Assembly: GCA_963798285.1 (NCBI GenBank)
Contig: CAWCSR010000003.1
Coordinates: 66,777-130,776 of the forward strand
DNA from: an uncultured Thermoleophilia bacterium
GTDB taxonomy: Bacteria; Actinomycetota; Thermoleophilia; UBA2241
Reading direction: 5' to 3'
Length of the DNA: 64,000 nt
Under the pieces are notes generated by a model. That model worked only from the letters and a program-made list of their open reading frames with translations. It was not told where the DNA came from and did no database searches. The position numbers were made by a program, and so were the translations under genes. The first letter of the stretch is position 1, and the number at the start of each line of letters is the position of its first letter. Positions 5,492 through 45,387 of the stretch are shown piece after piece.

Positions 5492-6458
5492 TCACAGTGT
5501 GTCCAGCGGGCTGCGCACGCCTTGGCCGCCGCGCTGGAGGACGTGGGTGTAGATCATCGTGGTGCCCACATCCTTGTGGCCCAGGAGCTCCTGGATGGTG
5601 CGGATGTCGTAGCCGCTCTCCAGCAGATGCGTCGCGAAGGAGTGTCTCAGCGTGTGGCAGGTCGCATGCTTCGTGATGCCGGCCTTCGCGACGGCGTCTT
5701 TCACGGCACGCTGCACGATGCTCGGGTGCACATGGTGGCGGCCCTGGCGGCCTGTGCGGGCGTCCGTCCAGCGGCGCTGCTGTGGGAACAGCCACTGCCA
5801 GCGCCACTCGCGGGGGGCGCGCGGGTATTTGCGCTCGAGCGAGTCGGGCAGCGCGACCGCGCCCCAACCGTCGCGCGAGGTCGCGCTCGTGGATGAGCTT
5901 CGCGCGGCGCAGCTGATCGCGGAGGTCGGGCACGAGCGCCTGCGGAAGCGTGGTGGCGCGGTCCTTGCCGCCCTTGCCGGAGCGGACGGTGAGCTCGCCT
6001 CGGGCGAGGTCCAGGTCGAGCACGCGGAGGCGCAGGCACTCGTTCAGCCGCAAGCCTGCGCCGTAGAGGAGCGAAGCGATCAGCCAGCTCTGAGGGTCGT
6101 TGCGGTCGAGCTCTTGCAGGACGGCGCGCACCTCTTCTCTGCTCAGGACCACGGGCAGCCGGGCGGGCTTGCGCGCGCGCACCAGCTCGTGGAGCTCGCC
6201 GATGTCGCGGTGCAGGACGCGGCGGTAGAGGAAGAGGAGTGCGCTGAGCGCCTGGGTCTGCGTCGAGGCGCTGACGTGTTCTACAACCGCCAGATGGGTC
6301 ACGAAGGCGTTGATCTCAGGCTCCGCCATATCCGCTGGGTGGCGGAGCCCATGGAAGCGGATGTACCGCCGCACCCAGCGGCAGTAGGTCTGCTCGGTGC
6401 GGCGGCTGTAGTGGCGCGCCCGCAGGGCGCGCTGCAACTGGTCGATGAGTTCGGACAC
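5492..6458 (-). pseudogene. intI: Integron integrase IntI, interrupted by one frameshift near 5870 as assembled
   Basis: N-terminal part (frame of ORF 5274-6653): VSELIDQLQRALRARHYSRRTEQTYCRWVRRYIRFHG...[14 protein letters not shown]...GKGGKDR. After a 1-nt shift: [29 protein letters not shown] (IntI-specific domain)...[12 protein letters not shown]...[14 protein letters not shown]. Probable GTG start at 6458. Confidence 0.85.
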
Positions 6459-6734
6459 GGCCCCAGCGTGGCCGCGTCGGGGCCGAGGTTCAATGGGTGA
6501 CGGGCAAACGTCAACGCGCCGGCCTCCGATGGCGGTAGGAAGGCACTGCTTGGCGGGGCAAAGGCGAAGAGCCAGGCACGTGGGGTTGGCCCGGCAGTCG
6601 CGCCCCCCGTTCGCGCGGCCGGCCGCCGCGCTCGCGCGCCGCGAATCACCCACTCAGGGTGAGGCGTCGCGAGGTCCCAGCCCCTACGTTGTGAGAGGAA
6701 CGCGGGGCCGGCACGACGGCGAGAGGAGAGATCC

Positions 6735-7112
6735 ATGGACCGGAGACTCGTGATCACGACTTCGTACCTCGCTCTGGTGCTGCTGGTGCTCACCGTGGCG
6801 GGACTGTACGACCCGGCTGGGGCGCCGGCCTCCGGTGGTGCGACGCAGCGGCCGCAACCGGCGCCGGGCCAGATGGCCGAGCAGCCGCAGGCGCCCTCGG
6901 CCCTCCCCGCCGGCGGCGCGGTGGCCATGGGGCCTCTGGCGCCGGGCGGCATGAGCGGCGAGTTCGCCCAGCGGCTGTTCGCGAGCGCCGGCGCCACCAG
7001 GGCGCCGTCGATCTACGTCCCGGCGGACTCGTGGCGAGGCCGGCACGGCTTCCGCTGGGGCCACCACGACTTCGGCATCCACGCCAGGGCGACGGCGACG
7101 TTCTCCTGCTGA
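6735..7112 (+). CDS. Small membrane-anchored hypothetical protein (Pro/Ala-rich)
   Basis: 125 aa. Strong RBS GAGAGGAGAG before the ATG. One N-terminal TM helix (YLALVLLVLTVAGLY). Confidence 0.5.
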   Translation: MDRRLVITTSYLALVLLVLTVAGLYDPAGAPASGGATQRPQPAPGQMAEQPQAPSALPAGGAVAMGPLAPGGMSGEFAQRLFASAGATRAPSIYVPADSWRGRHGFRWGHHDFGIHARATATFSC

Positions 7113-7128
7113 CCGCCCGGTCGCCGAG

Positions 7129-8504
<1,376 letters not shown>

Positions 8505-8515
<11 letters not shown>

Positions 8516-8861
8516 CGCGGCCTCCCTTCGTCGCGCCGGGGGCGCCGCCGGACGCCGTGGCGCCGGCGCCCTTCTTCTGGTCGCCCGAGCTCTTGAACAT
8601 CTCGAGCATCCGTTCGGTGACGGCGTAGCCGCCGACCGCGTTGGCGGCGCCGAGCAGCACGGCGAGGAAGCCGACGATGCGCTCCGGCGTCGTCGTCGCC
8701 GACCCGAGCGCGATCATGGCGCCCACGACGACGATGCCGTGCACGAAGTTGGAGCCGCTCATCAGGGGCGTGTGCAGGATGACCGGCACGCGGGAGATGA
8801 CCTCGTAGCCGACGAAGGCGGCGAGGATGAAGATGTAGACCGCCGCGAAGCCGGTGATCAT
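8505..8861 (-). CDS. pntAB: NAD(P) transhydrogenase subunit alpha part 2 (membrane)
   Basis: 118 aa. VPVILHTPLMSGSNFVHGIVVVGA...AANAVGGYAVTERMLEMF. Confidence 0.9.
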
Positions 8862-24581: not shown

Positions 24582-26271
24582 TCAGGGCTTGTCGCCCAGG
24601 CAGTACAGGTAGCCGTCGCGGCAGCCGACGTACAGGCGGCCGTTCCACAGCGTCGGCGTGGACTCGAAACCGCCGCCGGCGAAGAACTGGTCACGCTCCT
24701 TGAGCGACACCGTCCAGTAGTCGCCGTCGCCGTTCGCGCTGGGCAGGGCGCCGGCGTCGCCCTTCTGGGCCGGCGTGTACGTGATGTCGTAGAGGTGCAC
24801 GCGCTGGTCGTAGCCGGCGGACACCAGCCCGGTCGCGAACAGGAGCGGCGTGGAGACGGACGCCGCCGTTCCAGAACCTCGCCACTTGGACCGGCGTCTT
24901 CAGCCCCTTGGCGAGGTTCGGACCGGCGACCGTGGTCGCCGCCATCGTGTCCTGCGAGACGACGTACAGGTAGCCGTCGATGGCGTTGAACGCGCAGAGC
25001 GCCGGGTACTTGCCATCCCGGTTGTAGTCGTCGTTGACGCCGGCGGAGCCGATGATCCCGCCGGCCCAGTCCCCGACCTTGCGGTTCCCGGTGGGGAAGT
25101 ACCACACCGTCGCCTTGTCGGCCGGCTTTGCCGGGTCGACGGCGAGCATGCCTCCCTTGCCCTTGATGAACTGCTTCTCTACCGGGACCAGAAGCAGCCC
25201 CTTGCGCGTGGGCACGGCCGTGCCGTTCAGGTCAGACCCGACGAAGTAGTCCCAGACGACGGCGAGGTCGGAGCGCCGGAGCCCGTACACGTGGCCGGCG
25301 CCCGAGGTGATGTAGAGGTTCTTGCCGACCGCCGCGGCCGACGACTCGAGCGCGAGGTCGTCCTTGTGGTTCGCGTTACGCGCATCGCCGAGCAGCAACT
25401 GCCGGCGCACCACGACCGGCTGCTTCCATGGCGCCCAGGGCTGCGTCTTCAGCGGGTCGAGCGCGTAGAACCAGCCGCTCTCGACCCCGACGTAGAAGAG
25501 CCCGTCGTAGAAGAAGCCGCTGCCGTCGCAGTCGCGGCTGTAGTTCCTGGTCCGTGGCACGGGCAGGCGCCAGAGCTCCTTGCCGCTGCCGAAGGTGACG
25601 GCGCGCAGCGGCGCCACGCCCGGGTCGTCGATCTTGAGCGGGTAGCCGCGCCGCGACCCCGCGACGACGATGTACTTGTCGTCGGGGCCCGTCGGCGAGG
25701 GGTTCCGGAACACCGACGGGCTGCTCTTGATGATGTCGTCGAACTTGTACGCCCAGACGACCCTGCCGGTGGCCGCGTCGATGCGGCGCAGGTTGTACGA
25801 GTACGAGCTGGCGACCACGTACGTCTTGCCGCCGTCGACGACGATGTCGGGCTGGCCGGTCCACCCGCTCCCCGCCCACTTGCTCGGCTTGTCCGAGTCG
25901 TACTTGCCGGAGCTCCAGTTGCTGCCCAGGTCGATCTTCCAGAGCAGGTCGAGGTGCCTGGGCAGCGGGCCGAGGCCGTAGAAGCGGCGCGAGTAGTCTC
26001 CGAGAAAGGTACCGACCTTGACGCCGTCACCGGCCACCGTCGGCATCGTAGGGGCCGGGATCGGCCGCGCCTGAGCGACGGGCTCGGCGCTGCCGCCGCA
26101 GCCGCAGCCGGCGCACGAGGCGGCGCGCCAGACCAGCAGGATGACGAGGACCGCGAGGATGAGGAGCACGACGCCGCGCCGGCGCCGGAGTTGGCGCTGG
26201 CGTTCAGCTGAACGACGGCGTTGCGGCCGCCGGTCTTGTCCGGCCGACGTCTCGATGGCGCGACGATACAT
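24582..26271 (-). pseudogene. Membrane-anchored PQQ-like/BamB-like beta-propeller repeat protein; one frameshift near 24870 as assembled
   Basis: MYRRAIE... with TM VVLLILAVLVILLVW. Repeated ...G.LY..S..G.VY.L blades. The last blade (GRLYVGCRDGYLYCLG) is in the frame of ORF 24582-24824. Confidence 0.6.
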
Positions 26272-27581: not shown

Positions 27582-28690
27582 TCAGCGCAGCGCGGCGGCA
27601 GTCCGTTCGGCCGCCGCCGCGACCGGCTCGGCCGGCGGCGCGCCCAGCGTGGACGCCAGCTCGCGCGCCATGACCGGCTGCCACTTGAGGCGGCCCGGCG
27701 CGAGCAGGTGGAACAGGTCGGCGAAGTCGCCGTCCGTGAGCTTCACGGCGTGCTCGACGTCGATGTAGGGCACGCCGTAGCGCGCGGCGAGCGCGCGCGC
27801 ACGCTTGTGGTAGGCCGGCACCACGCCGTTCCAGGTCGGGCCGGCCGCCGAGGCATTGAGCGGCTGGTCGTACAGCACGACGCTGTAGCCGCGCTCCTGC
27901 GCCAGCTTGAGGACGTCCTCGCAGCATGGCGAAGTTGTAGTCCGCGTTCTGGCGATACAGCTTCGCGTCCGTGGCGAGCACGGTGAGGACGTTGCGCCGT
28001 TTGCCGAGGGGAGAAGCCCCGGTCGCGCCCCACGGGTAGTAGTGCGGCGCGTACTTGATCCGCGCGCCCCAGAGCGCCGTCCCGACTCCGATCCCGCGCT
28101 CGTGCAGGTACGAGCCCAGGTAGTCGAAGATGCCGGGGATGGCGCCTGCGGCATTGGCCGTCTTGCCGAAGTACTTCGGTCCGACCTGGTCCAGCCGCGG
28201 GCTGCGCACCAGGAGCGTGTGACCGGCGAGCAGGGACGCGTCCCGCGATGGTGCGCCGTCGAGGCGGATCGGCGCCAGCCCGATGGCGATCGTGGCCGGC
28301 CCCGGCGGCAGGTTGTCGACGAGCGCCAGCGTCATGGCCATGCTCTCCTGGTGGGCGGCGAGGCTCACGACCTGCACCGGCTGCTTCGCATCGTGGCCGA
28401 TCTGCCCTGCGAGCGAGGCCTCGCTGACGATGCACTCCATGGTGCCGGAGCCACCGAAGAGATATACGGTGCGCGTGGCCGGCGGGTGCTCCTTGAGCTG
28501 CTGCACCTTGACGGAGACGTGCAGGTAGTCGTCGTGCGGGATGCGCAGGAGGCGGCCTTCGTCGACCGCGGTCAGGCCGCCGTCGAACAGGATGCCCTGC
28601 AAGACGAAGAGCGCGACCAGCGTGACGAGGGCGGCCGCGACCAGCACCAGCGGGTTGCGCTGACGAAAACCGCGGCCGAACGCCAGCCAT
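27582..28690 (-). pseudogene. DltD-like (SGNH-like) extracytoplasmic acyl-transferase/esterase, paralog 3; two frame breaks as assembled (~28684 and ~27926)
   Basis: ATG at 28690, then a +1 shift gives (M)AAFGRGFRQRNPLVLVAAALV (TM). LFGGSGTME. C-terminal DGDFADLFHLLAPGRLKW in the frame of ORF 27582-28154. Collinear with 30034-31110 and 31110-32177. Confidence 0.7.
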
Positions 28691-28789
28691 GAGTCGGTGC
28701 TCTGTCCGTCACGGAGTGCCAATCTGTACCTCACAGGCTCCTTGGTGCTGATGGTCTCACAGGATGAACGCTCAGGGCCAGCAGGTGGT

Positions 28790-30037
28790 TCACAGGATGG
28801 CGCCATGGATCCACGCCAGCGGCAGACGCACCACGTTGAAGATGATCTTCAGAGCCTGCTGGATGTTCCCTGTTGAGACGAACGCATAGCCGAGCGCCAC
28901 GAAGAGGAACGTCGCCGGGTAGCCCAGCCACTTGGTGACCTTCTCGTAGCCGGCAGCCGGCGGCAGGCCCGCCTTCTTGCGCTTCTTCTTGCGGGCCCGC
29001 TTCCACCGCTCCCAGCGCGCCACGACGACGAGACCGGTGCCGTGGTAGAGGCCCCAGGCGATCCAGTTCAGGTCGACCTGGTGCCACAGGCCCATGACCA
29101 GCATACTCGAGTACAGGCCCAGCCACGTCTTGCGCGTGAGGCCGAACGTCGGGAAGTACACGTTGTTGCGCACCCAGGTGCTGAGCGAGATGTGCCAGCT
29201 GTGCCAGAACTCGCTCAGGTTCTTCTGCCAGAACGGGAAGTGGAAGTTCTCCATGATCCGGAACCCGAAGAGGCGCGAGAAGCCGACGGCGAGGTCGGTG
29301 TACGCGGAGAGGTCGAAGTACGCGCGCACGAACACGATGATGCAGTACGCGAGCGGCCACCACCAGCCGACGTGGTGCGGGTTGAAGTCGGTCTTGCCGA
29401 TGGTCGTGATGATCTTGCCGAAGAAGATCGAGAACAGGAAGTCGACGACGAAGACCTTCTTGAAGTAGCCCAGCGCGATGCGCCGCAGGCCGTAGTAGAA
29501 CTCCTGGCGCTCGAAGCCCACGGTGCGCTTCTCGTAGAAGCCCTGGTACGTCTCCAGCGGACCCGCCGGGAACGCCGGGATCCACATGATGAACGCCGCC
29601 AGCCGCAGCAGGTTGTTCTCCTCGATCACGCCGCGCATGCAGTCGAAGATGTACTGCAGCATGCGGAACACGAAGTAGCTGATGCCCAGCGGCATGATCA
29701 GGTGGCTGACGATGGGGTCGTTGGAGCCCCAGATGGCGCTGGCCCCCGTGTGCCCGTACTTGCCGATGCCCAGCGTCACGAGTGCTATGACGATGCCGAT
29801 GAGCACCACCCGGCCGCCGCGCAGCTTCTTCTTGCGCTTCAGATCGACCAGCTGGTGCGTGACCAGCACAAGCCCGAGGGCGATGCCGGCGAAGATCGGG
29901 TTCAGGAGGGCCAGTACGGCGACGCTGACGACGAGCATGAAGATCAGCCGGTAGACGTCCTTGCGCAGCAGCAGCCAGAAGACGAGCAGCGCGACGATCA
30001 CCACCGGGATCAGGTACAGCGTGAAGTAGATCTTCAC
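28790..30037 (-). CDS. MBOAT family membrane O-acyltransferase (DltB/AlgI-like)
   Basis: 415 aa, polytopic. PLGISYFVFRMLQYIFD and NLSEFWHSWHISLSTWVRNNVYFP (conserved His). GTGA overlap with the upstream gene. Confidence 0.85.
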   Translation of the reverse strand: MKIYFTLYLIPVVIVALLVFWLLLRKDVYRLIFMLVVSVAVLALLNPIFAGIALGLVLVTHQLVDLKRKKKLRGGRVVLIGIVIALVTLGIGKYGHTGASAIWGSNDPIVSHLIMPLGISYFVFRMLQYIFDCMRGVIEENNLLRLAAFIMWIPAFPAGPLETYQGFYEKRTVGFERQEFYYGLRRIALGYFKKVFVVDFLFSIFFGKIITTIGKTDFNPHHVGWWWPLAYCIIVFVRAYFDLSAYTDLAVGFSRLFGFRIMENFHFPFWQKNLSEFWHSWHISLSTWVRNNVYFPTFGLTRKTWLGLYSSMLVMGLWHQVDLNWIAWGLYHGTGLVVVARWERWKRARKKKRKKAGLPPAAGYEKVTKWLGYPATFLFVALGYAFVSTGNIQQALKIIFNVVRLPLAWIHGAIL

Positions 30038-31110
30038 CCGCTACTCCCTCCAGAGTCCGTGCTGAGGAGCGGGGCGAGCTCCTTCGCCAGTGCATGTTGC
30101 CAGATGACGCGCCCGGGCGCGATGAGATGCGAGAGGTCCTGGAAGTCGCGGCTCGGGATGTCGAGCGTCTTGTTGAGGTCGACGTACCGGACTCCGTACT
30201 TGCCGGCCAGCGCCGTCACCGGCTCCTGGTATTGCCGCTGCGAGGCGGCGAAGCTGTCGCCGACGATCTGCTCGTTGAGCGGCAGCTCAACGAGCACGAC
30301 GCGCACGTGGCGCTCGCGGGCCTGCTTCAACAGCTCCTCGAGCATCTGCAGGTTGGCGGCCACGTTCTGGTCGAAGACGGGGCGGCGGCTCGTGTTCCAC
30401 GTCGTCACGAGCCGCCTCTTCTGGCTGTTCGAGCGCCGCGTCGCCGCCGAGTACCGGTGGAGGGCGTACTCGATGCTCGGCGGCTTTCCCTCGACCAGGC
30501 CGACCGCGTGCGTCTTGGCCCACCCGGTGATGTACGACCAGATGCCGGGCAGGATGGTGTACTGATACTTCCCGAGTCCCCAGTGGGACGAGACGAAGGA
30601 CTGCACGGCGCGGCTGTCCAGCAGCAGCTCGCGGCCCTGGGCCTGCACGGCGTTCGTCTGCCTGGTCTCCGTGAAGCGGCCCAGGTTGATGCCGACCAGC
30701 ATCCAGGCCGGCGTGCGCGACGTGTCCGGCACGCTGTCCACAACGGCCAGGCTCTCGGCGAAGTTCTGATTGATCGAGCCCAGGTCGTAGGCGGCGACGC
30801 TGGGGCCGCCGTCCTGCTTGATCTCGGCGGCGAGCGCGTCGCCGCTCACGATCGACTCGCGGGCGCTCGAGCCGCCGACCAGGTAGAGGCCCGGCAAGCT
30901 CGGCGGCTGCTGCCGCGCCCTGCCGACCATCCACGAGATGTACGTGAACGAGTCCTGGCGATTGCGCAGGGCGCGGTCGAGCGACACCGTCGTCCAGGCG
31001 CCGCTCGTGAACAGCCACTGGAAGCCGAGCAGCGCCGGTACGAGCAGCAAGCCGGCGACGATCAGCACGAGCGGATTGCGGTTGCGGAACCCGCGCTTGA
31101 AGGCGCCCAT
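30034..31110 (-). CDS. DltD-like extracytoplasmic acyl-transferase/esterase, paralog 2
   Basis: 358 aa. N-terminal TM (NPLVLIVAGLLLVPALLGF). LVGGSSARE (compare DltD GSSE). SRDFQDLSHLIAPGRVIW (compare DltD D-x-x-H-I-x-x-x-G). Confidence 0.7.
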   Translation of the reverse strand: MGAFKRGFRNRNPLVLIVAGLLLVPALLGFQWLFTSGAWTTVSLDRALRNRQDSFTYISWMVGRARQQPPSLPGLYLVGGSSARESIVSGDALAAEIKQDGGPSVAAYDLGSINQNFAESLAVVDSVPDTSRTPAWMLVGINLGRFTETRQTNAVQAQGRELLLDSRAVQSFVSSHWGLGKYQYTILPGIWSYITGWAKTHAVGLVEGKPPSIEYALHRYSAATRRSNSQKRRLVTTWNTSRRPVFDQNVAANLQMLEELLKQARERHVRVVLVELPLNEQIVGDSFAASQRQYQEPVTALAGKYGVRYVDLNKTLDIPSRDFQDLSHLIAPGRVIWQHALAKELAPLLSTDSGGSSG

Positions 31111-32177
31111 CAGCGCGTCGTCCTGAGCGTGCCGTCCTTGTAGAGCGCGGCCAGCCGGCGGGCGAGCTCGGCCTGCCAGATCGCCCGCCCCGCGGGCCGC
31201 AGGTGCGACAGATCGAGGAAGTCACGGCTGGGGAGGTCGAGCTGGGCGTTGAAGTCGAGGTACGGCACGCCGAACTTGTCGGCGATGGCCTTGGTGGGCG
31301 CCTGGTAGGCTGCGATCGCCTTGGCGAAGGCGTCGCCGACGATCTGCCGGTTCCACGGGAGCTCGACGATGACGATGTCGAGGCCGCGCGCCTTACCCTC
31401 GGCGATCAGGCCGTCGAGCATCGCCGCGTCGAACGCGTGGACCTTCTTGAACGCGGGGTAGTACTGCGTGAGCCACTGCTTCACCAGCGCGCGCTTCTCG
31501 GAGTCCGGCAGAGTCTTGCGCGTGTCGAACGCGTGCACCTTGTACGGCTTCTGGTGCAGCTTGCCCTTGAGGAGCGCGTTCTCGCGTTGCTGCACGTAGG
31601 AGGTGAGCGCCGAGAAGATGCCCGGCAGGATCGTGTACGAGTACTTCTGCTCGCCCGAGTGCGCGGTGACCCAGCGGCGCAGCGAGTCGCTCTTGAGCAG
31701 GAGCTCGCGGCCGATGACCTGGTTGTAGTTGCTCTGCGGGCTGGTCGTGAAGCGGCCGAGGTTCACGCCGACCAGCACCGTCGTCGGCGTGTCCGGCAGG
31801 TTGTCGAGGATCGCCCAGCTCTGCGCGTAGCGCTGCATGCGCGAGCTCAGGTTGTACGCGGCGATGCCGGGGCCGCCGTCCGCCTTGACCTCGGCGGCCA
31901 GAGAGGGACCGCTCACCAGCGCCTCGCGTCCGCTCGAACCGCCGAGCAGTACCGCCAGCGGCTGATCGGGCGGGTGCTCCTTGAGGTGCCCGACCGTCCA
32001 CGAGACGAACATGTAGTCATCGGTCGAGTTGCGCTCCCAGCGCTGTGCGGCGATCGCCGTCCAGGCGCCGCTGGTGAAATAGCTCTGAATGGCGAGAAGC
32101 GCCGGCACGAGGAGGGCCAGCGCCGCGACGAGCACCAGGGGGTTCCGGTTGCGCAGGCCCCTCCTGAAGCTGCTCAC
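31110..32177 (-). CDS. DltD-like extracytoplasmic acyl-transferase/esterase, paralog 1
   Basis: GTG at 32177 overlapping the ligase stop (GTGA). VSSFRRGLRNRNPLVLVAALALLV, LLGGSSGRE, SRDFLDLSHLRPAGRAIW. Confidence 0.7.
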   Translation of the reverse strand: MSSFRRGLRNRNPLVLVAALALLVPALLAIQSYFTSGAWTAIAAQRWERNSTDDYMFVSWTVGHLKEHPPDQPLAVLLGGSSGREALVSGPSLAAEVKADGGPGIAAYNLSSRMQRYAQSWAILDNLPDTPTTVLVGVNLGRFTTSPQSNYNQVIGRELLLKSDSLRRWVTAHSGEQKYSYTILPGIFSALTSYVQQRENALLKGKLHQKPYKVHAFDTRKTLPDSEKRALVKQWLTQYYPAFKKVHAFDAAMLDGLIAEGKARGLDIVIVELPWNRQIVGDAFAKAIAAYQAPTKAIADKFGVPYLDFNAQLDLPSRDFLDLSHLRPAGRAIWQAELARRLAALYKDGTLRTTR

Positions 32178-33709
32178 CCCAGCTCCTCGACGAGCAGAGC
32201 CTGCAGCTCCGCCCTGATCGCCTTTCCGGATCCGGTGCGCGGGATCGCCTCGACGGCGATGACGCGGCTGGGCAGGGACGTGGACGGCAGCACGCCGCGC
32301 AGCTCGCGCAGGAGCTTTGAGGCTCTGAAGCCGTCCGGCTCGTGCGGGACGACGAACGCGACCGGCACGTGGCCGAGGATCTCGTCCGGAGCGGCGACCA
32401 CGGCGACGTCGGCGAAGCGTCCGAGCCCCTGCAGCGCCTCCTGCACGTGGATGATGCTGACCTTCTCGCCGCCGCGCTTGATGATGTCGTCCTTGCGCCC
32501 GGCGATCCACACGGCGCCCGTCTCGTCGACTTTGCCGAAGTCACCGGTCTTGAGGCCGTGATCCGTCAGCGTCTTCGCGGTGATGCCCGGCTCGTCCAGG
32601 TAGTCCTGCATGAGCAGCGAGCCGGTCACGTAGAGCTCGCCCTGCTCGCCGGGCGCGGCCTCCGTGAGGTCGCCGCGCCGGGCGACCACGCGCATGTCTC
32701 CGATGGGCCGGCCGACTGAGCCGACGCGCACGTCGAGCTCGGCCGGCGGCAGGATGCACAGCCGGCCGCTGACCTCGGTGAGGCCGTACATGTTGAACAG
32801 GCCGATGCCCGGCAGCACGCTTTGGAACTTCTCGATCACCGGCAGCGGCAGGTGGTCGCCGCTGCTCACCCAGAAGCGCAACGGGTGCTCGCGCGGCTCC
32901 TCCATCGGCTCCACCACGCGGACCAGATGGGCCGGCGCGCCACCGAATCCGGTGCAACCCTCCGCCTCCATCTCGTCGAGCAGGCCGGTGCCGAAGTAGA
33001 AGCCGAGCTGGCCGGCCACGCCCCCGCCGCTCGCCAGCAGCGTGAGGAAGTGGCAGATGCCGCTGGTGAAGTACGGCGGCGTGTTGATGAAGATGCGGTC
33101 GCCGGCCTCGAGCCCGAGCGTGAGGGCGACGTGCCCGGCGTTGCTCGAGACCGCCCTCAGCGTCTGGCGCACACCCTTGGGCAGCCCGGTCGTGCCGGAC
33201 GTGAACATGATCATCGCGATCTCGTCCCCGGTGACGGCCTTGAGCTCGCCGGGGGCAGCGGCCGCAGCAGCTTCGCCGCCGGCCGCGCGCACGCCGTCCA
33301 CGAGGCCGTCTGCGTCGGCGGTGACGACGAGCCGCACGGGACCGTCGTCCGGCGTCGGGCAGGTCGCGTCGTCCGGTACCAGAATGACGTCCGGCCGGGA
33401 CTTGCCGACCAGCCAGTCCACGTCGTGCTGCGGCAGGCTCGTGTTGAGCGGGACGACGACCTGCCCGGCGAGCCAGGCGCCCAGCATGCAGACGAAGAAC
33501 TGGTCGTACTCCTCAAGCACGAGCGCGATGCGGGCGCCGCGCCGGCCAGCGGCGGCCAGGAGTGACGCCGCGACTCGCGTCGCCCGCGCCTCCATGTCCG
33601 CGTAGGTGTAGGTGCGCCCGCGCGTGCGCAGAAGCGTCTCGCCGGCGCGCTCGGCCGCGAAGCGGCGCAGGCGCGCGACGGCGTCGGTCATCAGTGGCTC
33701 GGGCGTCAT
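32174..33709 (-). CDS. ANL-superfamily adenylating enzyme (AMP-dependent synthetase/ligase; DltA-like role, substrate unknown)
   Basis: 511 aa. MFTSGTTGLPKGV, NMYGLTE, KTGDFG, GRKDDIIKRGGEKV, PRTGSGKAIR core motifs. Confidence 0.85.
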   Translation of the reverse strand: MTPEPLMTDAVARLRRFAAERAGETLLRTRGRTYTYADMEARATRVAASLLAAAGRRGARIALVLEEYDQFFVCMLGAWLAGQVVVPLNTSLPQHDVDWLVGKSRPDVILVPDDATCPTPDDGPVRLVVTADADGLVDGVRAAGGEAAAAAAPGELKAVTGDEIAMIMFTSGTTGLPKGVRQTLRAVSSNAGHVALTLGLEAGDRIFINTPPYFTSGICHFLTLLASGGGVAGQLGFYFGTGLLDEMEAEGCTGFGGAPAHLVRVVEPMEEPREHPLRFWVSSGDHLPLPVIEKFQSVLPGIGLFNMYGLTEVSGRLCILPPAELDVRVGSVGRPIGDMRVVARRGDLTEAAPGEQGELYVTGSLLMQDYLDEPGITAKTLTDHGLKTGDFGKVDETGAVWIAGRKDDIIKRGGEKVSIIHVQEALQGLGRFADVAVVAAPDEILGHVPVAFVVPHEPDGFRASKLLRELRGVLPSTSLPSRVIAVEAIPRTGSGKAIRAELQALLVEELG

Positions 33710-33725
33710 GAGCGCGTAGCTGGGG

Positions 33726-33923
33726 TCAGAAGCCGACGTATCTGAACTCGGTGAGCTTGTCGCCCACCAGCACGGCCACCGTGATCGCCAGGAACAGCAG
33801 GAACCAGAGAAACGTCTGCAGGCTCAGACCGAGCCCGTAGTAGAACCACTGGGCGCGAGGCTTGGCCGGCTCCGGGCTCTCCGTGCCCTCCGCCGGCCGC
33901 TGCTCTGTATCAGTCTCAGGCAT
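33726..33923 (-). CDS. DltX-like small membrane protein with C-terminal F-x-Y-x-x-F motif
   Basis: 65 aa. One TM (LQTFLWFLLFLAITVAVLV). Extreme C-terminus EFRYVGF. 8-nt overlap with the carrier-protein gene. Confidence 0.6.
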   Translation of the reverse strand: MPETDTEQRPAEGTESPEPAKPRAQWFYYGLGLSLQTFLWFLLFLAITVAVLVGDKLTEFRYVGF

Positions 33924-34164
33924 CGCCCGCCTTCTTGCGCGCGACGTAGGCCAGCATGTGGTTCACGGTGTCCAGGTTCTCGTAGACGATGTCCATGGGC
34001 CTCACCTTGATCTCGAACTCCTCCTCGAGAAACGCGATGAGCGCCGTGAGGTTCATGGAATCGAGCAACTGGTCACGGAAGAGCGACGTGTCGGCGGTGA
34101 CCTCGTCTTCTTCAAGGTCGGCCTCGTCGCGGATGAATTCGAGGATGGTATCGGCGTCGGCCAT
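33916..34164 (-). CDS. Acyl/peptidyl carrier protein, DltC-like
   Basis: 82 aa. SLFRDQLLDSMNLTALIAFLEEEFEI with Ser in the LDS phosphopantetheine site. GGAAGGA RBS. Confidence 0.8.
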   Translation of the reverse strand: MADADTILEFIRDEADLEEDEVTADTSLFRDQLLDSMNLTALIAFLEEEFEIKVRPMDIVYENLDTVNHMLAYVARKKAGDA

Positions 34165-34192
34165 GTCGGTTCCTTCCCGGTCTGGGCGAGGG

Positions 34193-34876
34193 TCAGGTAC
34201 GGGTGCCCTGGCTGTAGGAGAACTGCATGTAGTTCTCGAAGCCGGAGGCCTCTTTGCCCGCCTTGATCACCCCGGCGAGCGTGAACACGCGCTGCGCGGT
34301 CTGGAAGCCCTGCTCGAGGCCCCACTCGTCGCTGAGGACGTGCCCCCTACCTCCGGCCCAGCCGTAGGCGCCGAACTGACAGGAGCCGTCGCCGTTGCCC
34401 ACGACGAGGCAGCCGTTGCGCACGAAGGGCAGCCACGTGGCCAGGATCGCCGTCTCGGCGCCGCCGGAGCGGCGGCCGGCCGTGGCCAGCACGCCGACCG
34501 GCTTGTCGGCGAGCCTGAAGTCCTGGTGCCGCAGCGGGCGCGTGCGCATGATGAACCTGGAGAACAGGTCGGACGGCAGACCGAAGTAGACCGGCGTGGC
34601 CACGAGGATGCCGTCGGCGGCCACCATCGCGTCGAGGATGCCCTGCACGTCGTCCTCCTGCTCGCGGACGCAGGGGATGAAGGTGCCGTCCTTCTTCTTG
34701 CCGCAGACGTTGCACGCCTTGCACGGCTCGATGTGCAGGTCACGCAGGCTGATGACCTCGTGCTCGCAATCGCCGGGGTAGGCGGCGTCGAGCTTCTCGA
34801 AGGCCGTATCCAGCATGATGCTGCTGTTGCTGTTGTCGCGGGGGCTGCAGTTGAGCCCCAAGAGCCGCACCGTCAT
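34193..34876 (-). CDS. Flavodoxin-like/NADPH-dependent FMN reductase family protein with a Cys cluster (iron-sulfur flavoprotein-like)
   Basis: 227 aa from ATG 34876. LLGLNCSPR, CKACNVCGKKKDGTFIPC, ILVATPVYFG. Confidence 0.6.
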   Translation of the reverse strand: MTVRLLGLNCSPRDNSNSSIMLDTAFEKLDAAYPGDCEHEVISLRDLHIEPCKACNVCGKKKDGTFIPCVREQEDDVQGILDAMVAADGILVATPVYFGLPSDLFSRFIMRTRPLRHQDFRLADKPVGVLATAGRRSGGAETAILATWLPFVRNGCLVVGNGDGSCQFGAYGWAGGRGHVLSDEWGLEQGFQTAQRVFTLAGVIKAGKEASGFENYMQFSYSQGTRT

Positions 34877-35040
34877 GCTTCGTGCTCCTCTCCGTGCACG
34901 GCCCCCCGACGAACACGAAGGGCAGAAGGGAAACGTCATGCCCGCAGTCGCCGTACGGGAACGCAATCGTACCAGACGTCCGGCTCGCGCGCGCCCGCAA
35001 CACGCCCGCGCAAGGCGATACACAGGCGTTTCACAGGAAG

Positions 35041-35128
35041 TGGTGCCGGAGGTGGGACTCGAACCCACACGCCCTTTCGGGGCACCCGATTTTGAGTCGA
35101 GCGCGTCTACCAGTTCCGCCACACCGGC
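35041..35128 (-). tRNA. tRNA-Leu (anticodon CAA), long variable arm, CCA encoded
   Basis: Minus strand reads GCCGGTGTGGCGGAACTGGTAGACGCGCTCGACTCAAAATCGGGTGCCCCGAAAGGGCGTGTGGGTTCGAGTCCCACCTCCGGCACCA. Confidence 0.9.
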
Positions 35129-35364: not shown

Positions 35365-35646
35365 TCACTCAGTCTGGCCGGCAGCCACAAGCTCCGGGGC
35401 GTCGGCGACGGGCTGCTCCGGGGCGCCAGCGACGGGCTGCTCCTGGGCTTCAGCGACGGGCTGGCCAGCGGTCGCGGCCGTCGACTGCTCTTCGTCCTCG
35501 AGAGGGTCGTCCTCGTCGAGGCCCTGCTTGAAGCCGCGGATGCTCTGGCCGAGTGAGCGACTGAGCTTGGGCAGCCGCTGCGCCCCGAAGAGAAGGAAGA
35601 CGACGAGGGCGATGATGAGCAGTTCAGGTACGCCGATATCAGGCAC
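35365..35646 (-). CDS. tatA: Twin-arginine translocase subunit TatA/E
   Basis: [42 protein letters not shown]. Acidic C-terminal tail with EQPVA repeats. Confidence 0.8.
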
Positions 35647-35885: not shown

Positions 35886-36584
35886 TCAGTACTGCGAAGA
35901 GTATGTCGTGGTCCACATGGACGGACCCATGCCCTTGCTGAGGGCGTAGGCGGTCGCGAAGATCTGCGAGCTACCGTCGTAGATGCTGTCGCCGCGCCAC
36001 GGGTTCCAGCTCGAGGACCAGGTGCCCGTGTAGTACTGGAACAGCCCCTTGAAGGAGGTGCTGGACCCGGCGTACTGCTGGCCACCGGACTCGCGCATCA
36101 TCATGCGGTACATGCCGTCGGCCTTGACGTGGTACTTGGCCGCGGCGACCTTGATGATCGGCATCCACTGCTGGTCGGCCTCCCAGCGGGCCATCTGAAG
36201 CTCGAAGCGGTACTGCTTCGCGATGCGCTGCACGCGCTGCGTCCAGACGTGGACCGCGTGCCGCGCCCGGCTCACCTGCGCCTTGAGCTGGTCGACCGTG
36301 AGGCCGGCCGGGGTGGCGGCAGGAGATGGCGTGGCGGCCGGGGTGGCCGTGGCGACCGGACCGGCGGAGGTGGCGACGCTGGTCGTGGAGCCGATCACAG
36401 CGGCGGACAGGGCGGCCTCGGCGGCCTTCAGGCGGTGGGTGGAGTGGCGGAGGGCCTGCTTCGCTGAGCGGAGCTGGTCCTTGAGGGAGGCCGCCTCGGC
36501 CTTCTGAGGCACGGCGATGGCGGCCAGGGCGGTGGCGACGACGATGATCGCGACGATGGCGATCCAGCTCTTCCTTCGACTCAC
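35886..36584 (-). CDS. Secreted/membrane-anchored lytic transglycosylase (SLT-like domain) with coiled-coil linker
   Basis: GTG at 36584 after AAGGA. TM WIAIVAIIVVATALAAIAV. C-terminal MRESGG...FKGLFQYYTGTW. Confidence 0.6.
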   Translation of the reverse strand: MSRRKSWIAIVAIIVVATALAAIAVPQKAEAASLKDQLRSAKQALRHSTHRLKAAEAALSAAVIGSTTSVATSAGPVATATPAATPSPAATPAGLTVDQLKAQVSRARHAVHVWTQRVQRIAKQYRFELQMARWEADQQWMPIIKVAAAKYHVKADGMYRMMMRESGGQQYAGSSTSFKGLFQYYTGTWSSSWNPWRGDSIYDGSSQIFATAYALSKGMGPSMWTTTYSSQY

Positions 36585-36764
36585 AACGTCCTTTCGACGC
36601 GGTTTCCCCTCGGGCAGCGGTATCTGACCTGTGCAGAAGGGGGCGGTCGGCGTCGGAACCACGCTGAGCCCGCATGCGCACGCCGCAAGGGTGAAGGGGG
36701 AAGAAGGAGGGCGAACAGAATGTGGGGGCGCGCCAGACGCCTCGTTGTTCGTTCGGGGAGTTAG

Positions 36765-37916: not shown

Positions 37917-37981
37917 GCGACACGCCTCCACCTCGCAAGCGCCACCCGTGGCGCGCGGCGATCGTCTTCCTGGTCATCGTC

Positions 37982-38923
37982 GTGGCGCTGTTCCTCATCG
38001 TGCCGCGACTGGCCGGCCAGAAGCACGCGCTCGAGCTGCTGCAGGACGCCACGCCCGCCTGGCTGGCGGTGGCGGTCGCGGTCGAGTGCGTCTCGCTCTT
38101 CTTCTACTCGCTGCTCTTCCGCCGCCTGCTCGACCTCCTCCGTACCCTCTGTCGCTCGGCCTGGCGCTGCGCATCAACCTCGCCGGGCTCGCGGCCGCCC
38201 ATCTCTTCTCCGCCGGCGGCGTGGGCGGCGCGGCCGTGACCTACCGCGTGCTGCAGAAGCGCGGCATGCCCCACTCCCTCGTCCTGATCGCGGTGATCTT
38301 CCAGAACGCGTTCGCGTACATCGTGCTCTTTGCGCTCTTCGGCGCCGGCCTCACGGTGCTCATCCTGCGCGGGCAGGGCGGCGACGCGGCGGAGGTCGTC
38401 GCCGGCATCTTCGTCCTCCTGCTGCTCGGCGGCCGCCGGCTACGGCTTCTGGCTGCTCAGCCATCCCACGTCGCTGCGCCGGCGCGCGCACAAGGTCGTG
38501 GGCTGGCTCGAACGCCGGATCAAGCGCCTGGACGTGGACCCTTCCCAGCTGAACGAGTGGCTGGACGGAGTCGTGGACGGCTGGCGGCGCCTGCGCCGCG
38601 TAGGCTGGAGGCACGTAAGGACGCTGGGGCTCGCCGGCGGCTACTGGGCCTTCGACATCGGCTGCCTGCTCCTGGTCATGCTCGCGTTCCACCAGACGCT
38701 CTCGCCCGACAGGGTGCTGATCGCCTACGCCGTCGCCAACGTGGTCGGCACCTTCTCCCCCACGCCCGGCGGCCTCGGCGCCGTGGAGGGCGTCATGATC
38801 GCGCTGCTCGTGGGCTTCGACATGCCGTCGGCGGCGGCTGTCGCGGTGGTCCTCGTGTACCGCCTGATCAACTTCTGGCTGCCGATCCCCGCGGGGCTTG
38901 CCACCTACCTCAGCGTTCGCTAG
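37982..38923 (+). pseudogene. UPF0104/LPG-synthase-TM (flippase-like) membrane protein; two frame breaks; start uncertain (may extend to ~37913)
   Basis: Three collinear pieces in the frames of ORFs 37982, 37627 and 38330. Ends ...VANVVGTFSPTPGGLGAVEGVMIALLV...VLVYRLINFWLPIPAG. Confidence 0.65.
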
Positions 38924-39007
38924 CTTGCCCGTTCCATCCCCGGGGCCCCGCACCCCGCCTGCGCTCAGTCCTGCCACGCACGGCCTCGCGCACCCTGTGG
39001 TACTGTC

Positions 39008-40116
39008 GTGACCTTGGCGGAAGGGCCTGCCGACCCTGGGGGGAACGCCATCAAGAAGACGCTCCGCCACATCATCGTCTTCGCGGTCATCGTGCTGGCG
39101 CTCTACCTGCTGCTGCCCAAGCTCGTCGACACGCAGGAGACCGTCAAGTACGTCTCGCAGGCCAGCTACGTGCTGCTCGCGCTCGCCGTCGCCCTCGAGA
39201 TCGTGGCGCTGGCCGGGTACGCCAACCTCTTCCGCTACATCCTGCGCGTGCTCGACATCCGCCTGCGCCTGCGCGAGGTCTGGGCGATCACGCTGAGCGG
39301 CCTGGCCGTGAGCCACATCCTCTCGGCCGGCGGCGTCGGCGGCTGGGTCGTGACCTACAACGCGCTCATGAAGCACAAGGTGCCGCACGGCATCATCTTC
39401 GTCGCCATCGCGGCCCAGCAGTTCTTCAACTACGTGGTGCTCTGGTTCTTCTTCGCGATCGCGATGGTCTACCTGATCCTCGTGCGCGGCGGCGACTCGA
39501 TCTTCGGCTACCTGGCGGGCATCGTGCTCATCGTGCTCATCCTGTGGCTGACGCTCTACGGCGTGTACCTCTACAACCACCCCACGCGGCTGCGCCTGCG
39601 GGCGGCGCAGGTCGGCCCGTCTGGTGAACCGCGTGACGCGCCGCGAGGTGGTCAAGGAGCGCCACATCGACGGCTGGATCGACAACCTGCTGATCGGCAT
39701 GCGGCGCATGACCGGCCACCGCGGGGTCGTTCCGGAACACCCTTCTGTCCGCCTGCGTCTTCTGGTCCTTCGACGTGCTCTGCCTGTGGTGCACGTTCGC
39801 AGCGTTCGGCTACACGATCGGGCTCGGCCACCTGCTCGTGGGCTACGTGGTGGCGTACTCCATCGGGACGCTGGCGCCGACGCCGGGAGGGCTGGGCGCC
39901 ATCGAGGGCATCATGATCGCGCTCTACGTGAGCTTCGGCGTGCCGTCCGCCGTCGCCGTCGCCGTCGTGCTCGTCTACCGCATCATCAACTTCTGGCTGC
40001 CGATCCCGCCCGGCTTCATCGCCTACGCGGTCGTGCGGCCGGGCCGCCGCCCGATCGCCGAAGGCGAGGTGGAGGCGGCGGCCGACGAGGCCCCCGAAGA
40101 GCTCCTGAGCCGGTGA
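39008..40116 (+). pseudogene. UPF0104/LPG-synthase-TM (flippase-like) membrane protein, paralog; two frame breaks (~39615, ~39740)
   Basis: Pieces in the frames of ORFs 39008, 39624 and 39775. ...SIGTLAPTPGGLGAIEGIMIALYV...VLVYRIINFWLPIPPG. Confidence 0.65.
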
Positions 40117-44120: not shown

Positions 44121-44843
44121 TCATATCGGGTACCAGACGCGGAAGAGCAGCGCGGTGATGGCGATGCCGAGCGCCGCGCCGACCGCCACCTCGGTCACCG
44201 AGTGGATCTTGGCCTGGATCCGGCTCTGGGCCACGAGCGCGGCCAGGAACAGCGTGATCGCCGAGATCGGCAGCGCGAAGGTGGTGCCGGCGGCGACGAA
44301 GGTCACCGCGACCCACGCCGCGAAGGCGAGCGCGGCGTGCACCGACGGCAACCCGCCCCGGAAGGCGGTGCCACGGTGGGTCAGCGCCTTGAGCGCGATG
44401 GCCGCCAGGATGACGATGAACAGCGAGATCACGGTGACGTCGATCGGCGAGCCGCGGAGCTTGCTCAGGATCGTGTACGGGACGCTGGTGATCTTGTCGT
44501 AGAAGACGAGGTAGGCGACGGCGACGGCGTTGACGGCGGCGATGAGCACGGCGCCCGCCGCCACGTCCTTGGCGATGCGGGCGCGCGGGTCGTCCTCGTC
44601 GGTCACGAGGTCGACGACGTGCTCGATGGCCGTGTTGAACATCTCGGTGATGAGCACGAACGAGATGGCGACCAGAAGCGCGATGACCTCCACGCGGGTG
44701 AGCGCGAAGAACAGGCCGGCCATGAGCACCAGCGCGGCGATGCCGAAGTGGATCCACATGTTGCGCTCGTAGCTGAGCGCGTGGACGATGCCGTCGAAGG
44801 CGAAGTTGAAGCTGGTGAGCAGGTTACCGCGACGTTGCGACAA
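44121..44843 (-). CDS. Fusion of a prokaryotic DgkA-type lipid kinase domain and a PAP2-type phosphatase domain
   Basis: 240 aa. N-terminal half has EMFNTAIEHVVDLV (DgkA motif). C-terminal half has GGLPSVHAA and SRIQAKIHSVTEV (PAP2 C2/C3-like). TTG start after GGGAGGG. Confidence 0.7.
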   Translation of the reverse strand: MSQRRGNLLTSFNFAFDGIVHALSYERNMWIHFGIAALVLMAGLFFALTRVEVIALLVAISFVLITEMFNTAIEHVVDLVTDEDDPRARIAKDVAAGAVLIAAVNAVAVAYLVFYDKITSVPYTILSKLRGSPIDVTVISLFIVILAAIALKALTHRGTAFRGGLPSVHAALAFAAWVAVTFVAAGTTFALPISAITLFLAALVAQSRIQAKIHSVTEVAVGAALGIAITALLFRVWYPI

Positions 44844-45387
44844 CGAGGCCCTCCCATTCGACGAGTTCGAGGACCTCGGCCTGGCGGAGTGCCATCTGGC
44901 CGGCGTCGGTCTCGTGGTCCCAGCCCAGCAGGTGCAGCGTGCCGTGCGCCAGCAGGACGGCGACCTCGAACGACGGCGGGAGGTCGTCGCCGCGCGCCTG
45001 CTCGAGGGCGCGGCGCGTGCAGATGACGATGTCGCCGAGCATCAGCGGCGGTCCGGCCGTGCCGGCGAGCACCGCCTCGGCCACATCGCCGAGATCCGGC
45101 GCGAGCGCGGCGATCACGACGGCCTCGGCCTCGCCGGGCGCTCCGGCGCCGTCAGTTGTGGGGTCGCCGGGCTCCCACTCCTCGAGCGGGAAGCTCAGGA
45201 CGTCCGTCACCTCGTCCTTGGCGCGGTACTCGCGGTTCAGGTCGCGGATGCGCTTCTCGCCGACGAACTCCACGCCGACCTCCGCGCCGACCACGCCCTC
45301 CTCCTCGAGCACCTTGGCGACGAGACGCGCGACGAGCTCCTCGTCGATCTTCGTCCGCGTCGCGTTGACCACCTCGACCACGTTCAT
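44824..45387 (-). CDS. ybeY: rRNA maturation RNase YbeY (with a ~40-aa internal insertion)
   Basis: 187 aa. TDVLSFPLEE...LLAHGTLHLLGWDHE. Confidence 0.85.
   Translation of the reverse strand: MNVVEVVNATRTKIDEELVARLVAKVLEEEGVVGAEVGVEFVGEKRIRDLNREYRAKDEVTDVLSFPLEEWEPGDPTTDGAGAPGEAEAVVIAALAPDLGDVAEAVLAGTAGPPLMLGDIVICTRRALEQARGDDLPPSFEVAVLLAHGTLHLLGWDHETDAGQMALRQAEVLELVEWEGLVVATSR

Follow-up and report, generated by a model that had tools for sequence, protein, structure and literature searches.

The window analysed here is a stretch of 64,000 nucleotides, with a G+C content of about 70%, from an uncultured Thermoleophilia bacterium of soil (Actinomycetota; assembly GCA_963798285.1, contig CAWCSR010000003.1, positions 66,777 to 130,776 of the forward strand). 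Between positions 27582 and 34876 it carries eight genes, all on the minus strand and arranged head to tail in the order F-C-X-A-D1-D2-B-D3. A first-pass annotation made from the sequence alone had described seven or eight genes in this region, joined by overlapping stop and start codons, and had taken them for a complete pathway analogous to Dlt, the D-alanylation system of Firmicutes teichoic acids, with a non-canonical composition. The coordinates and junctions of the genes were confirmed, and their number is eight. The idea of a Dlt-type relay is likewise supported by an MBOAT protein that matches DltB only, by an FXYXXF motif on the micro-protein X, and by the presence of a PP-binding carrier protein together with an ANL adenylase.

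The first gene, F (34193-34876), encodes an NADPH-dependent FMN-reductase-type flavoprotein (PF03358 FMN_red, E 9e-23). It is followed by C (33916-34164), which specifies an 82-aa acyl/peptidyl carrier protein (PF00550 PP-binding, E 8e-10), by X (33726-33923), for a 65-aa single-pass micro-protein with the C-terminus FRYVGF, and by A (32174-33709), for a 511-aa ANL adenylating enzyme (AMP-binding, E 9e-61; AMP-binding_C, E 4e-13). D1 (31110-32177; Ser81, Asp322 and His325) and D2 (30034-31110; Ser81, Asp325 and His328) encode membrane-anchored SGNH-fold proteins. B (28790-30037) encodes a 415-aa DltB-type MBOAT (PF03062, E 8e-15) with His282 in the motif WHISLS, and D3 (27582-28806) a third SGNH-family protein of a distinct subgroup (GGSGT...FADLFHL), whose reading frame is shifted in the assembly. 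Stop and start codons overlap in ATGCCTGA at the C/X junction, in GTGA at A/D1, in TGATG at D1/D2 and in GTGA at D2/B, while gaps of 28 nt and 16 nt separate F from C and X from A, respectively. The eight genes form a single operon in which all five Dlt roles are brought together and linked by these overlaps. In the profile searches proposed in the first-pass annotation, the PP-binding, AMP-binding and MBOAT domains pass, and the D proteins stay under every family threshold.

When one genome per GTDB species was scanned, 56 loci were obtained, all of them from uncultured Thermoleophilia/Actinomycetota metagenome-assembled genomes (MAGs) except one record labelled Armatimonadota. The layout of the window, F-C-X-A-D-D-B-D3, is regarded as the common form because it occurs in 20 loci. 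Seven others have F-C-X-A-D-B-D3, five have F-C-X-A-D-B and two have three D genes before B; the remaining loci are truncated or frameshifted. F-C-X-A-D-B is the smallest conserved unit, and D3 usually comes after it. This neighbourhood survey, also proposed in the annotation, thus shows F-C-X-A-D(1-3)-B-(D3) recurring in about 40 Thermoleophilia MAG loci with D2 identity down to 47%, and this conserved architecture implies purifying selection on the whole gene set. That these genes belong together is more than chance, as about 40 independent loci repeat both the set and its order. Every complete locus starts with F, which agrees with the earlier description of this gene as the leader of the operon; F sometimes overlaps C. 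The triplication of the transferase gene noted previously is real in the window, where three D genes are present, but lineage-specific, with one to three copies preceding the MBOAT gene elsewhere.

The putative membrane shuttle, the carrier protein and the adenylase

The B protein scores 55.3 bits against PF03062, for which the gathering score is 27. Its sole NCBIfam match is the DltB model TIGR04091 (E 4e-48, model positions 7-377 of 380) and, among 177,635 distinct PDB sequences searched, its sole matches are those of DltB (6bug and 8jem, E 1e-31). The conserved His282 in WHISLS aligns with the WHMSLS segment of DltB, which holds the catalytic histidine. In bacterial MBOATs that depend on acyl-coenzyme A (acyl-CoA), the FXYXXF acyl shuttle ends two extra C-terminal helices; DltB is without these two helices and the motif is located on a separate micro-protein, DltX (PMC12148441). 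The B protein is of DltB length and ends in ...AWIHGAIL. A terminal FxYxxF was found in none of the MBOAT orthologs checked in related loci.

In this operon the motif is carried by X. The protein has one strongly hydrophobic helix with basic residues on its N-terminal side, and its C-terminus, F60-R-Y62-V-G-F65, is an exact match to FXYXXF. The ending ...LTEFRYVGF is present in 41/41 orthologs, which agrees with the earlier view of X as a DltX-like 65-aa transmembrane micro-protein. Because the basic residues precede the helix, we infer an N-in, C-out topology in which Tyr62 should face outward. X gave no match at E <= 0.1 with Pfam and NCBIfam, the DltX family included, and it is by its C-terminal motif that it is predicted to be a DltX-type acyl shuttle. 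There are 347 metagenomic homologs, labelled 'hypothetical protein' where they have a source name, and the search for relatives outside the clade was uninformative, the matches listed being all at least 64% identical. The N-terminal cytoplasmic tail of X is acidic, proline-rich and variable in length, the whole protein ranging from 65 to 114 aa (for example at 5964-6308 in the related locus L001), with the transmembrane helix and the last nine residues invariant.

The phosphopantetheine site of C is Ser36, in LLDSMNL, and among NCBIfam models this protein scores highest with generic acyl carrier proteins. The A protein has all of the ANL core motifs (TSGTTGLPKG, YGLTE, TGD, GRKDDIIKRGGEKV and GSGK) and resembles fatty-acid, aryl-acid and o-succinylbenzoate CoA ligases. 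Its top NCBIfam models are fatty-acid-CoA ligases (NF004837, 252 bits), every one of them scoring under its cut-off, and the DltA model is absent from the 25 best matches. The closest PDB sequences are those of FadD13 (E 5e-45), FadD5 and MenE, whereas DltA reaches only E 6e-26. In the A4 motif, PPYFT215SG, the residues F214-T215 align with the FD dipeptide of LgrA in both A-domain alignments, and [IV]NTPPYFTSG is kept in 37/37 A orthologs. Because the Asp of this dipeptide, which binds the alpha-amino group, is replaced by Thr215 in A, the sequence suggests that D-alanine, or any ordinary alpha-amino acid, is unlikely to be the substrate. The general acyl- or aryl-CoA-ligase appearance attributed to this enzyme in the first-pass annotation is thus upheld both by its best matches and by the absence of the Asp.

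These observations bear directly on whether the operon could encode an ordinary though divergent D-alanylation system, transferring D-alanine onto a teichoic-acid-like polymer. Its five functional roles are those of Dlt, its MBOAT matches DltB only, X bears the DltX-type motif and DltD is the top fold match of the D proteins (see below). However, DltA is a weak match for A compared with FadD13 and lies outside the best NCBIfam models, the residue anchoring the alpha-amino group is Thr in every A ortholog compared, and C, B and the D proteins all fall below Dlt equivalog or Pfam cut-offs. Moreover, the flavoprotein and the extra transferases are without counterpart in the dlt operon. Taken with these points, D-alanylation appears very improbable.

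It could also be imagined that the acyl donor is not carrier-bound. Most bacterial MBOAT-SGNH pathways use acyl-CoA (PMC12148441) and the best matches of A are all CoA ligases, so that A might be a plain acyl-CoA ligase serving O-acylation of the PatA/PatB or AlgI/J/X kind, with C not acting as the direct donor to the MBOAT. Yet the length and architecture of B are those of DltB, the FXYXXF motif is on a separate micro-protein and not on two extra helices, and a dedicated carrier protein, whose gene overlaps X translationally, is invariant. A pathway fed by acyl-CoA is on these grounds rather improbable. The carrier-bound donor is preferred because a carrier protein, a split micro-protein and a DltB-type MBOAT occur together, and A is presumed to load C.

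The flavoprotein F has a CX2CX2CX10-11C motif, invariant in all orthologs, which we liken to the compact 4Fe-4S motif of iron-sulfur flavoproteins. Among solved structures, a flavone ene-reductase (7d38, E 3e-8) comes closest, and the alignment covers only the flavodoxin-like N-terminal half. As this generic half alone aligns, assignment of a function to F from structure matches was rejected and no substrate was inferred from them.

The SGNH-family proteins

D1 and D2 share 47.6% identity, and D3 is 31-34% identical to either. Both D1 and D2 have a basic N-terminus, a transmembrane helix, the GGS81 motif and the motif D-L-S-H-L. None of the three D proteins reached a Pfam or NCBIfam family at threshold: scores with Lipase_GDSL_2 were 18.4 (D1), 24.8 (D2) and 23.6 bits (D3), confined to the C-terminal half and under the gathering threshold of 32.9. 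An exhaustive profile search nevertheless shows the family to be large, with 1385 representatives (clusters at 50% identity) at E <= 1e-3 and 203 at E <= 1e-30. When 100 diverse members are aligned, invariance is confined to three columns, S81, D325 and H328 (D2 numbering), which make up the SGNH catalytic triad. A Pfam scan of 100 members found Lipase_GDSL_2 in 62 (matches counted at E <= 1; best E 1.5e-6), DltD in five (best E 2.3e-5) and DUF1574 in five. Homologs of D2 are abundant in metagenomes and, where they have source names, go under 'lysophospholipase L1-like esterase' or 'hypothetical protein'. Among ten diverse family representatives, only unnamed or 'hypothetical' metagenome proteins were found.

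An AlphaFold2 model of D2 built from a deep alignment (predicted local distance difference test, pLDDT, 96.5; predicted template modelling score, pTM, 0.93) has its transmembrane helix at residues 13-35, after which comes an alpha/beta domain that contains a helical insertion. In a Foldseek comparison with the PDB, DltD 6o93 ranks first (E 3e-5, template modelling (TM) score 0.41) and the DltD structures 3bma and 6pfx are also retrieved. Generic GDSL esterases and PatB come next, and all of the significant matches are SGNH or GDSL proteins. A first, weaker model had given the same picture, with TM-scores staying at about 0.4. Membership of the DltD family itself was rejected: D2 reaches only E 0.32 with the Pfam model, alignment of the D profile with solved DltD sequences by hhalign has a probability of 0.1%, and a profile of 19 D relatives found nothing among PDB sequences. 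Judged by triad conservation and by the model, the D proteins are membrane-anchored SGNH proteins of a new family, predicted to be catalytically competent and DltD-like in superfamily and role. The earlier label of DltD-like single-pass proteins consequently holds for superfamily, role and top fold match, but not for family membership.

The paralogs differ in their position and distribution. D2 is the copy directly upstream of the MBOAT gene in nearly all loci. The D1 orthologs form a separate conserved subgroup in FCXADDBd loci, and D1 is regarded as a lineage-specific duplicate. D3 belongs to a separate subgroup whose block I is GGSGT and not GSS; every D3 ortholog has this feature, with the invariant serine retained. 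The third DltD-like gene of the first-pass annotation is therefore present and of the SGNH family, but it departs from the description in its block I and is frameshifted in the assembly.

The D3 frame is split by a +1 frameshift near 27921 (ATGCTG[C]GAGGAC), the change of frame lying between 27919 and 27926. Removal of one base restores ...FAMLEDVLKLAQERG..., colinear with intact orthologs (FAVLEEVLKLARERG in L001), which are 354-383 aa long in relatives. Candidate start codons for D3 are ATG at 28806, GTG at 28735 and TTG at 28723. Taken alone, the frameshift might indicate that the locus is in decay, or no longer works, in this genome. However, the remaining seven genes are intact, and at least six further frameshifts relative to L001 are found in unrelated genes within 18 kb. 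The sites are at 24860, 27921 (D3), 37952-38983, 39032-40056 and about 40910, and the genes affected besides D3 are a PQQ-repeat gene, both UPF0104/LPG_synthase_TM genes (two shifts each) and a PMT-like glycosyltransferase gene. This suggests an indel-prone assembly, probably a long-read one. Because of these other shifts nearby, that in D3 is probably an assembly error and not gene decay, and with the repaired product colinear with its orthologs, decay of the locus is barely plausible.

Members of the D family also occur in other contexts. Some of them (P0282, P0306 and P0382) are fused to a pectate-lyase-like beta-helix, to RCC1 repeats or to a weak Ig-like (Big_1) domain, fusions which hint weakly at glycan or extracellular contexts. 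Orphan D paralogs, shorter, about 30% identical and without the central insertion, are encoded elsewhere in the same MAGs (L043, L046-L055, L057 and L058), sometimes in tandem. For example, in L050 two such genes (6093-7655 and 7755-8771) are followed by a gene for a DUF218 membrane protein. No MBOAT or AT3 partner was found within 8 kb of the orphan paralogs.

The D proteins might act in the same relay on an acceptor other than a wall glycopolymer, namely a lipid of the membrane, a lipoprotein or a small molecule that is secreted, or some copies might be esterases that remove or edit the modification. By TM-score they resemble GDSL esterases at least as much as polymer transferases, orphan paralogs exist without an MBOAT, genes for glycopolymer synthesis are not conserved beside the operon and, in some lineages, a PF00756 esterase with a Tat signal is encoded after D3. 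On the other hand, the characterised MBOAT-SGNH pairs all act on envelope polymers and some D members are fused to carbohydrate-related domains. Such a role is unlikely.

The proposed relay and its genomic setting

The operon probably encodes a carrier-protein-dependent MBOAT/micro-protein/SGNH relay, Dlt-type in mechanism, by which an acyl group different from D-alanine would be ester-linked to one or several envelope acceptors outside the cytoplasm. The proposal is built on the domain identities, motifs, catalytic-residue conservation, operon structure and synteny described above, and its chemical steps, topology, acyl group and acceptor would be as follows. In the cytoplasm, A would activate a carboxylic acid without an alpha-amino group and thioesterify it to the phosphopantetheine on Ser36 of C. 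F could tailor the acid or the acyl-carrier intermediate by a redox step, or supply the acid. B, through His282, would then pass the acyl group along a membrane tunnel to Tyr62 of X on the outer face, and the acyl-tyrosine of X would be handed to the catalytic serine (Ser81 in D1 and D2) of the SGNH proteins, universally D2, together with D1 and D3. These proteins would finally transfer the acyl group to acceptor hydroxyls, probably those of glycopolymers. Since the D paralogs form two subgroups, encoded before and after B, in addition to the orphans elsewhere, they may serve several different acceptors or a two-step hand-over like that of AlgJ/AlgX.

Several observations weigh against such a relay. 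All of the hosts are uncultured MAGs. C scores below the cut-offs of both DltC equivalogs (32.8 bits against 68 for NF003464 and 21.3 bits against 52.35 for TIGR01688), and B reaches 164.5 bits with TIGR04091, under the 375-bit equivalog cut-off. The sequence of A is compatible with loading of CoA as well as of C, and an A4 position without Asp may also go with unusual amino acids, such as beta-amino acids. Acceptor-synthesis genes conserved beside the operon were not found in the loci compared. The distance between the D proteins and DltD is a further point. In addition to the poor score of D2 with Pfam PF04914, the hhalign comparison with four solved DltD sequences is of negligible probability, although colinear through the GS, PxN and DxxH blocks. 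The likeness of the D2 model to DltD is low (TM-scores of 0.38-0.44) and, when the score is normalised by target length, DltD is no better than generic GDSL esterases. Because the resemblance to DltD is weak in both sequence and fold, some D copies could be esterases instead of transferases. The first-pass annotation had itself named three findings that would speak against its interpretation, namely failure of the single-pass proteins to align to an SGNH-like fold, an adenylase pocket clearly matching a CoA ligase with no carrier interaction, and previous characterisation of the cluster in a close relative; none of the three was made.

Upstream of the operon, a putative promoter with an extended -10-like element (TGn-TAnnnT), TCTGGTACGAT, lies at 34966-34976 on the minus strand and was recognised by its conservation only. 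The sequence TCTGGTAnnAT is invariant in 37 loci, 92-106 nt before the start codon of F (48 nt in L002); the GAGGAG ribosome-binding site that comes after it is likewise invariant. A consensus scan for sigma-70 promoters and terminators gave nothing useful. With regard to a riboswitch or structured leader upstream of F, Rfam detected only a tRNA, and no consensus structure emerged over 26 loci.

This tRNA-Leu(CAA) gene is located at 35041-35128 on the minus strand (ARAGORN and Rfam). It is found directly upstream of F on the same strand in 6/6 other loci checked (L001, 4714-4800; L002, 7120-7206; L006, 3993-4080; L028, 5022-5108; L036, 4774-4860; L041, 4967-5053), even where the farther flanks differ. 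It is probably not a functional part of the operon. Codon-based regulation through this tRNA was rejected, as TTG is not enriched in the operon (2.4% of Leu codons, compared with 2.0%).

Beyond the tRNA gene the flanks differ among lineages, and the UPF0104 and PMT genes are not conserved beside the operon in distant relatives. An envelope-remodelling neighbourhood, as suggested at first, is weak and was set aside: the right flank consists of housekeeping genes, among which MurJ lies 21 kb away, and the upstream flank is not conserved. In distant lineages D3 is followed by a gene for a PF00756 'putative esterase' that is absent from the window (13422-14342 in L002, where the product has a Tat-like signal, RRQLLIGGG; also in the P0105 locus). 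Pfam PF00756 includes mycolyltransferases. The gene at 35886-36662 on the minus strand, formerly called a lytic transglycosylase, has no Pfam match at E <= 1e-3 and specifies an ES...GLFQ-type motif near the C-terminus; close to it, a TatA-type-looking protein is encoded at 35365-35646 on the same strand. Farther away, a single open reading frame at 44124-45041 on the minus strand combines prokaryotic diacylglycerol kinase (E 6e-33) and PAP2 phosphatase (E 4e-9) domains and adjoins ybeY.

Relation to known systems

As in DltXABCD, one operon combines an adenylase with a small carrier protein, with a DltB-type MBOAT to which no shuttle motif is fused, and with a single-pass micro-protein that bears FXYXXF separately at its end; an SGNH-fold protein, anchored in the membrane and endowed with a Ser/His/Asp triad, is likewise encoded in both. 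It differs in that the adenylase is not DltA-like and has Thr for the amino-binding Asp, that the carrier, the MBOAT and the SGNH proteins are under the Dlt family cut-offs, and that two to four SGNH paralogs of two subgroups replace the one DltD. Moreover, its genes are ordered F-C-X-A-D-D-B-D with that for an Fe-S/FMN reductase in first place, the N-terminal tail of X is long and acidic, and the hosts are Actinomycetota.

The pairing of an MBOAT with SGNH proteins and the FXYXXF acyl-tyrosine shuttle are also features of PatA/PatB, AlgI/AlgJ/AlgX and WssH/WssI. AlgJ and AlgX provide a precedent for more than one SGNH-type protein per system. In contrast to the present operon, these systems use acetyl-CoA as donor, have no adenylase or carrier protein and bear the shuttle motif on two additional helices of the MBOAT itself (PMC12148441). 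The OatA-type AT3-SGNH fusions resemble the relay proposed here in transmembrane acyl transfer from an acyl-tyrosine to an SGNH serine and on to an envelope polymer, but their membrane domain is AT3 and not MBOAT, they are single polypeptides and their donor is acetyl-CoA. In the AlmEFG system of Vibrio cholerae, which glycylates lipid A, a DltA-like adenylase and a DltC-like carrier protein decorate an envelope molecule in a non-Firmicute. Its final transferase is an LpxL-type acyltransferase of the cytoplasmic face, and it has no MBOAT, micro-protein or SGNH protein.

The MBOAT/SGNH pathways other than Dlt are stated to have neither a carrier protein nor a micro-protein like DltX, the split arrangement being described for Dlt only (PMC12148441). 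A full-text literature search found no description of this cluster. The novelty of the operon is that the chassis of Dlt occurs in a phylum other than the Firmicutes, where it is combined with another type of adenylase, with a flavoprotein and with SGNH proteins of a new family. More tentatively, the operon may represent a second, hitherto undescribed class of carrier-dependent transmembrane acylation, in which a DltB/DltX-type shuttle was recruited in Actinomycetota for an acyl group that is not an amino acid and on which the Fe-S flavoprotein may perform a redox step. Paralogous SGNH transferases (D1, D2, D3 and the orphans), each with a different envelope acceptor, would then be fed by a single MBOAT/micro-protein core. 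This broader scheme is a speculation that we consider doubtful as a whole.

The mechanism of the acyl-tyrosine shuttle has been worked out only recently, and the operon is a natural counter-example to the notion that its split version is unique to D-alanylation. It would mean that acyl groups unavailable as CoA thioesters can be exported quite generally on a chassis of the Dlt kind. The D proteins, moreover, define an SGNH family that is large and uncharacterised, and with several transferases possibly served by one shuttle the system lends itself to testing. For the abundant uncultured Thermoleophilia of soils, it provides a first handle on their cell-surface chemistry.

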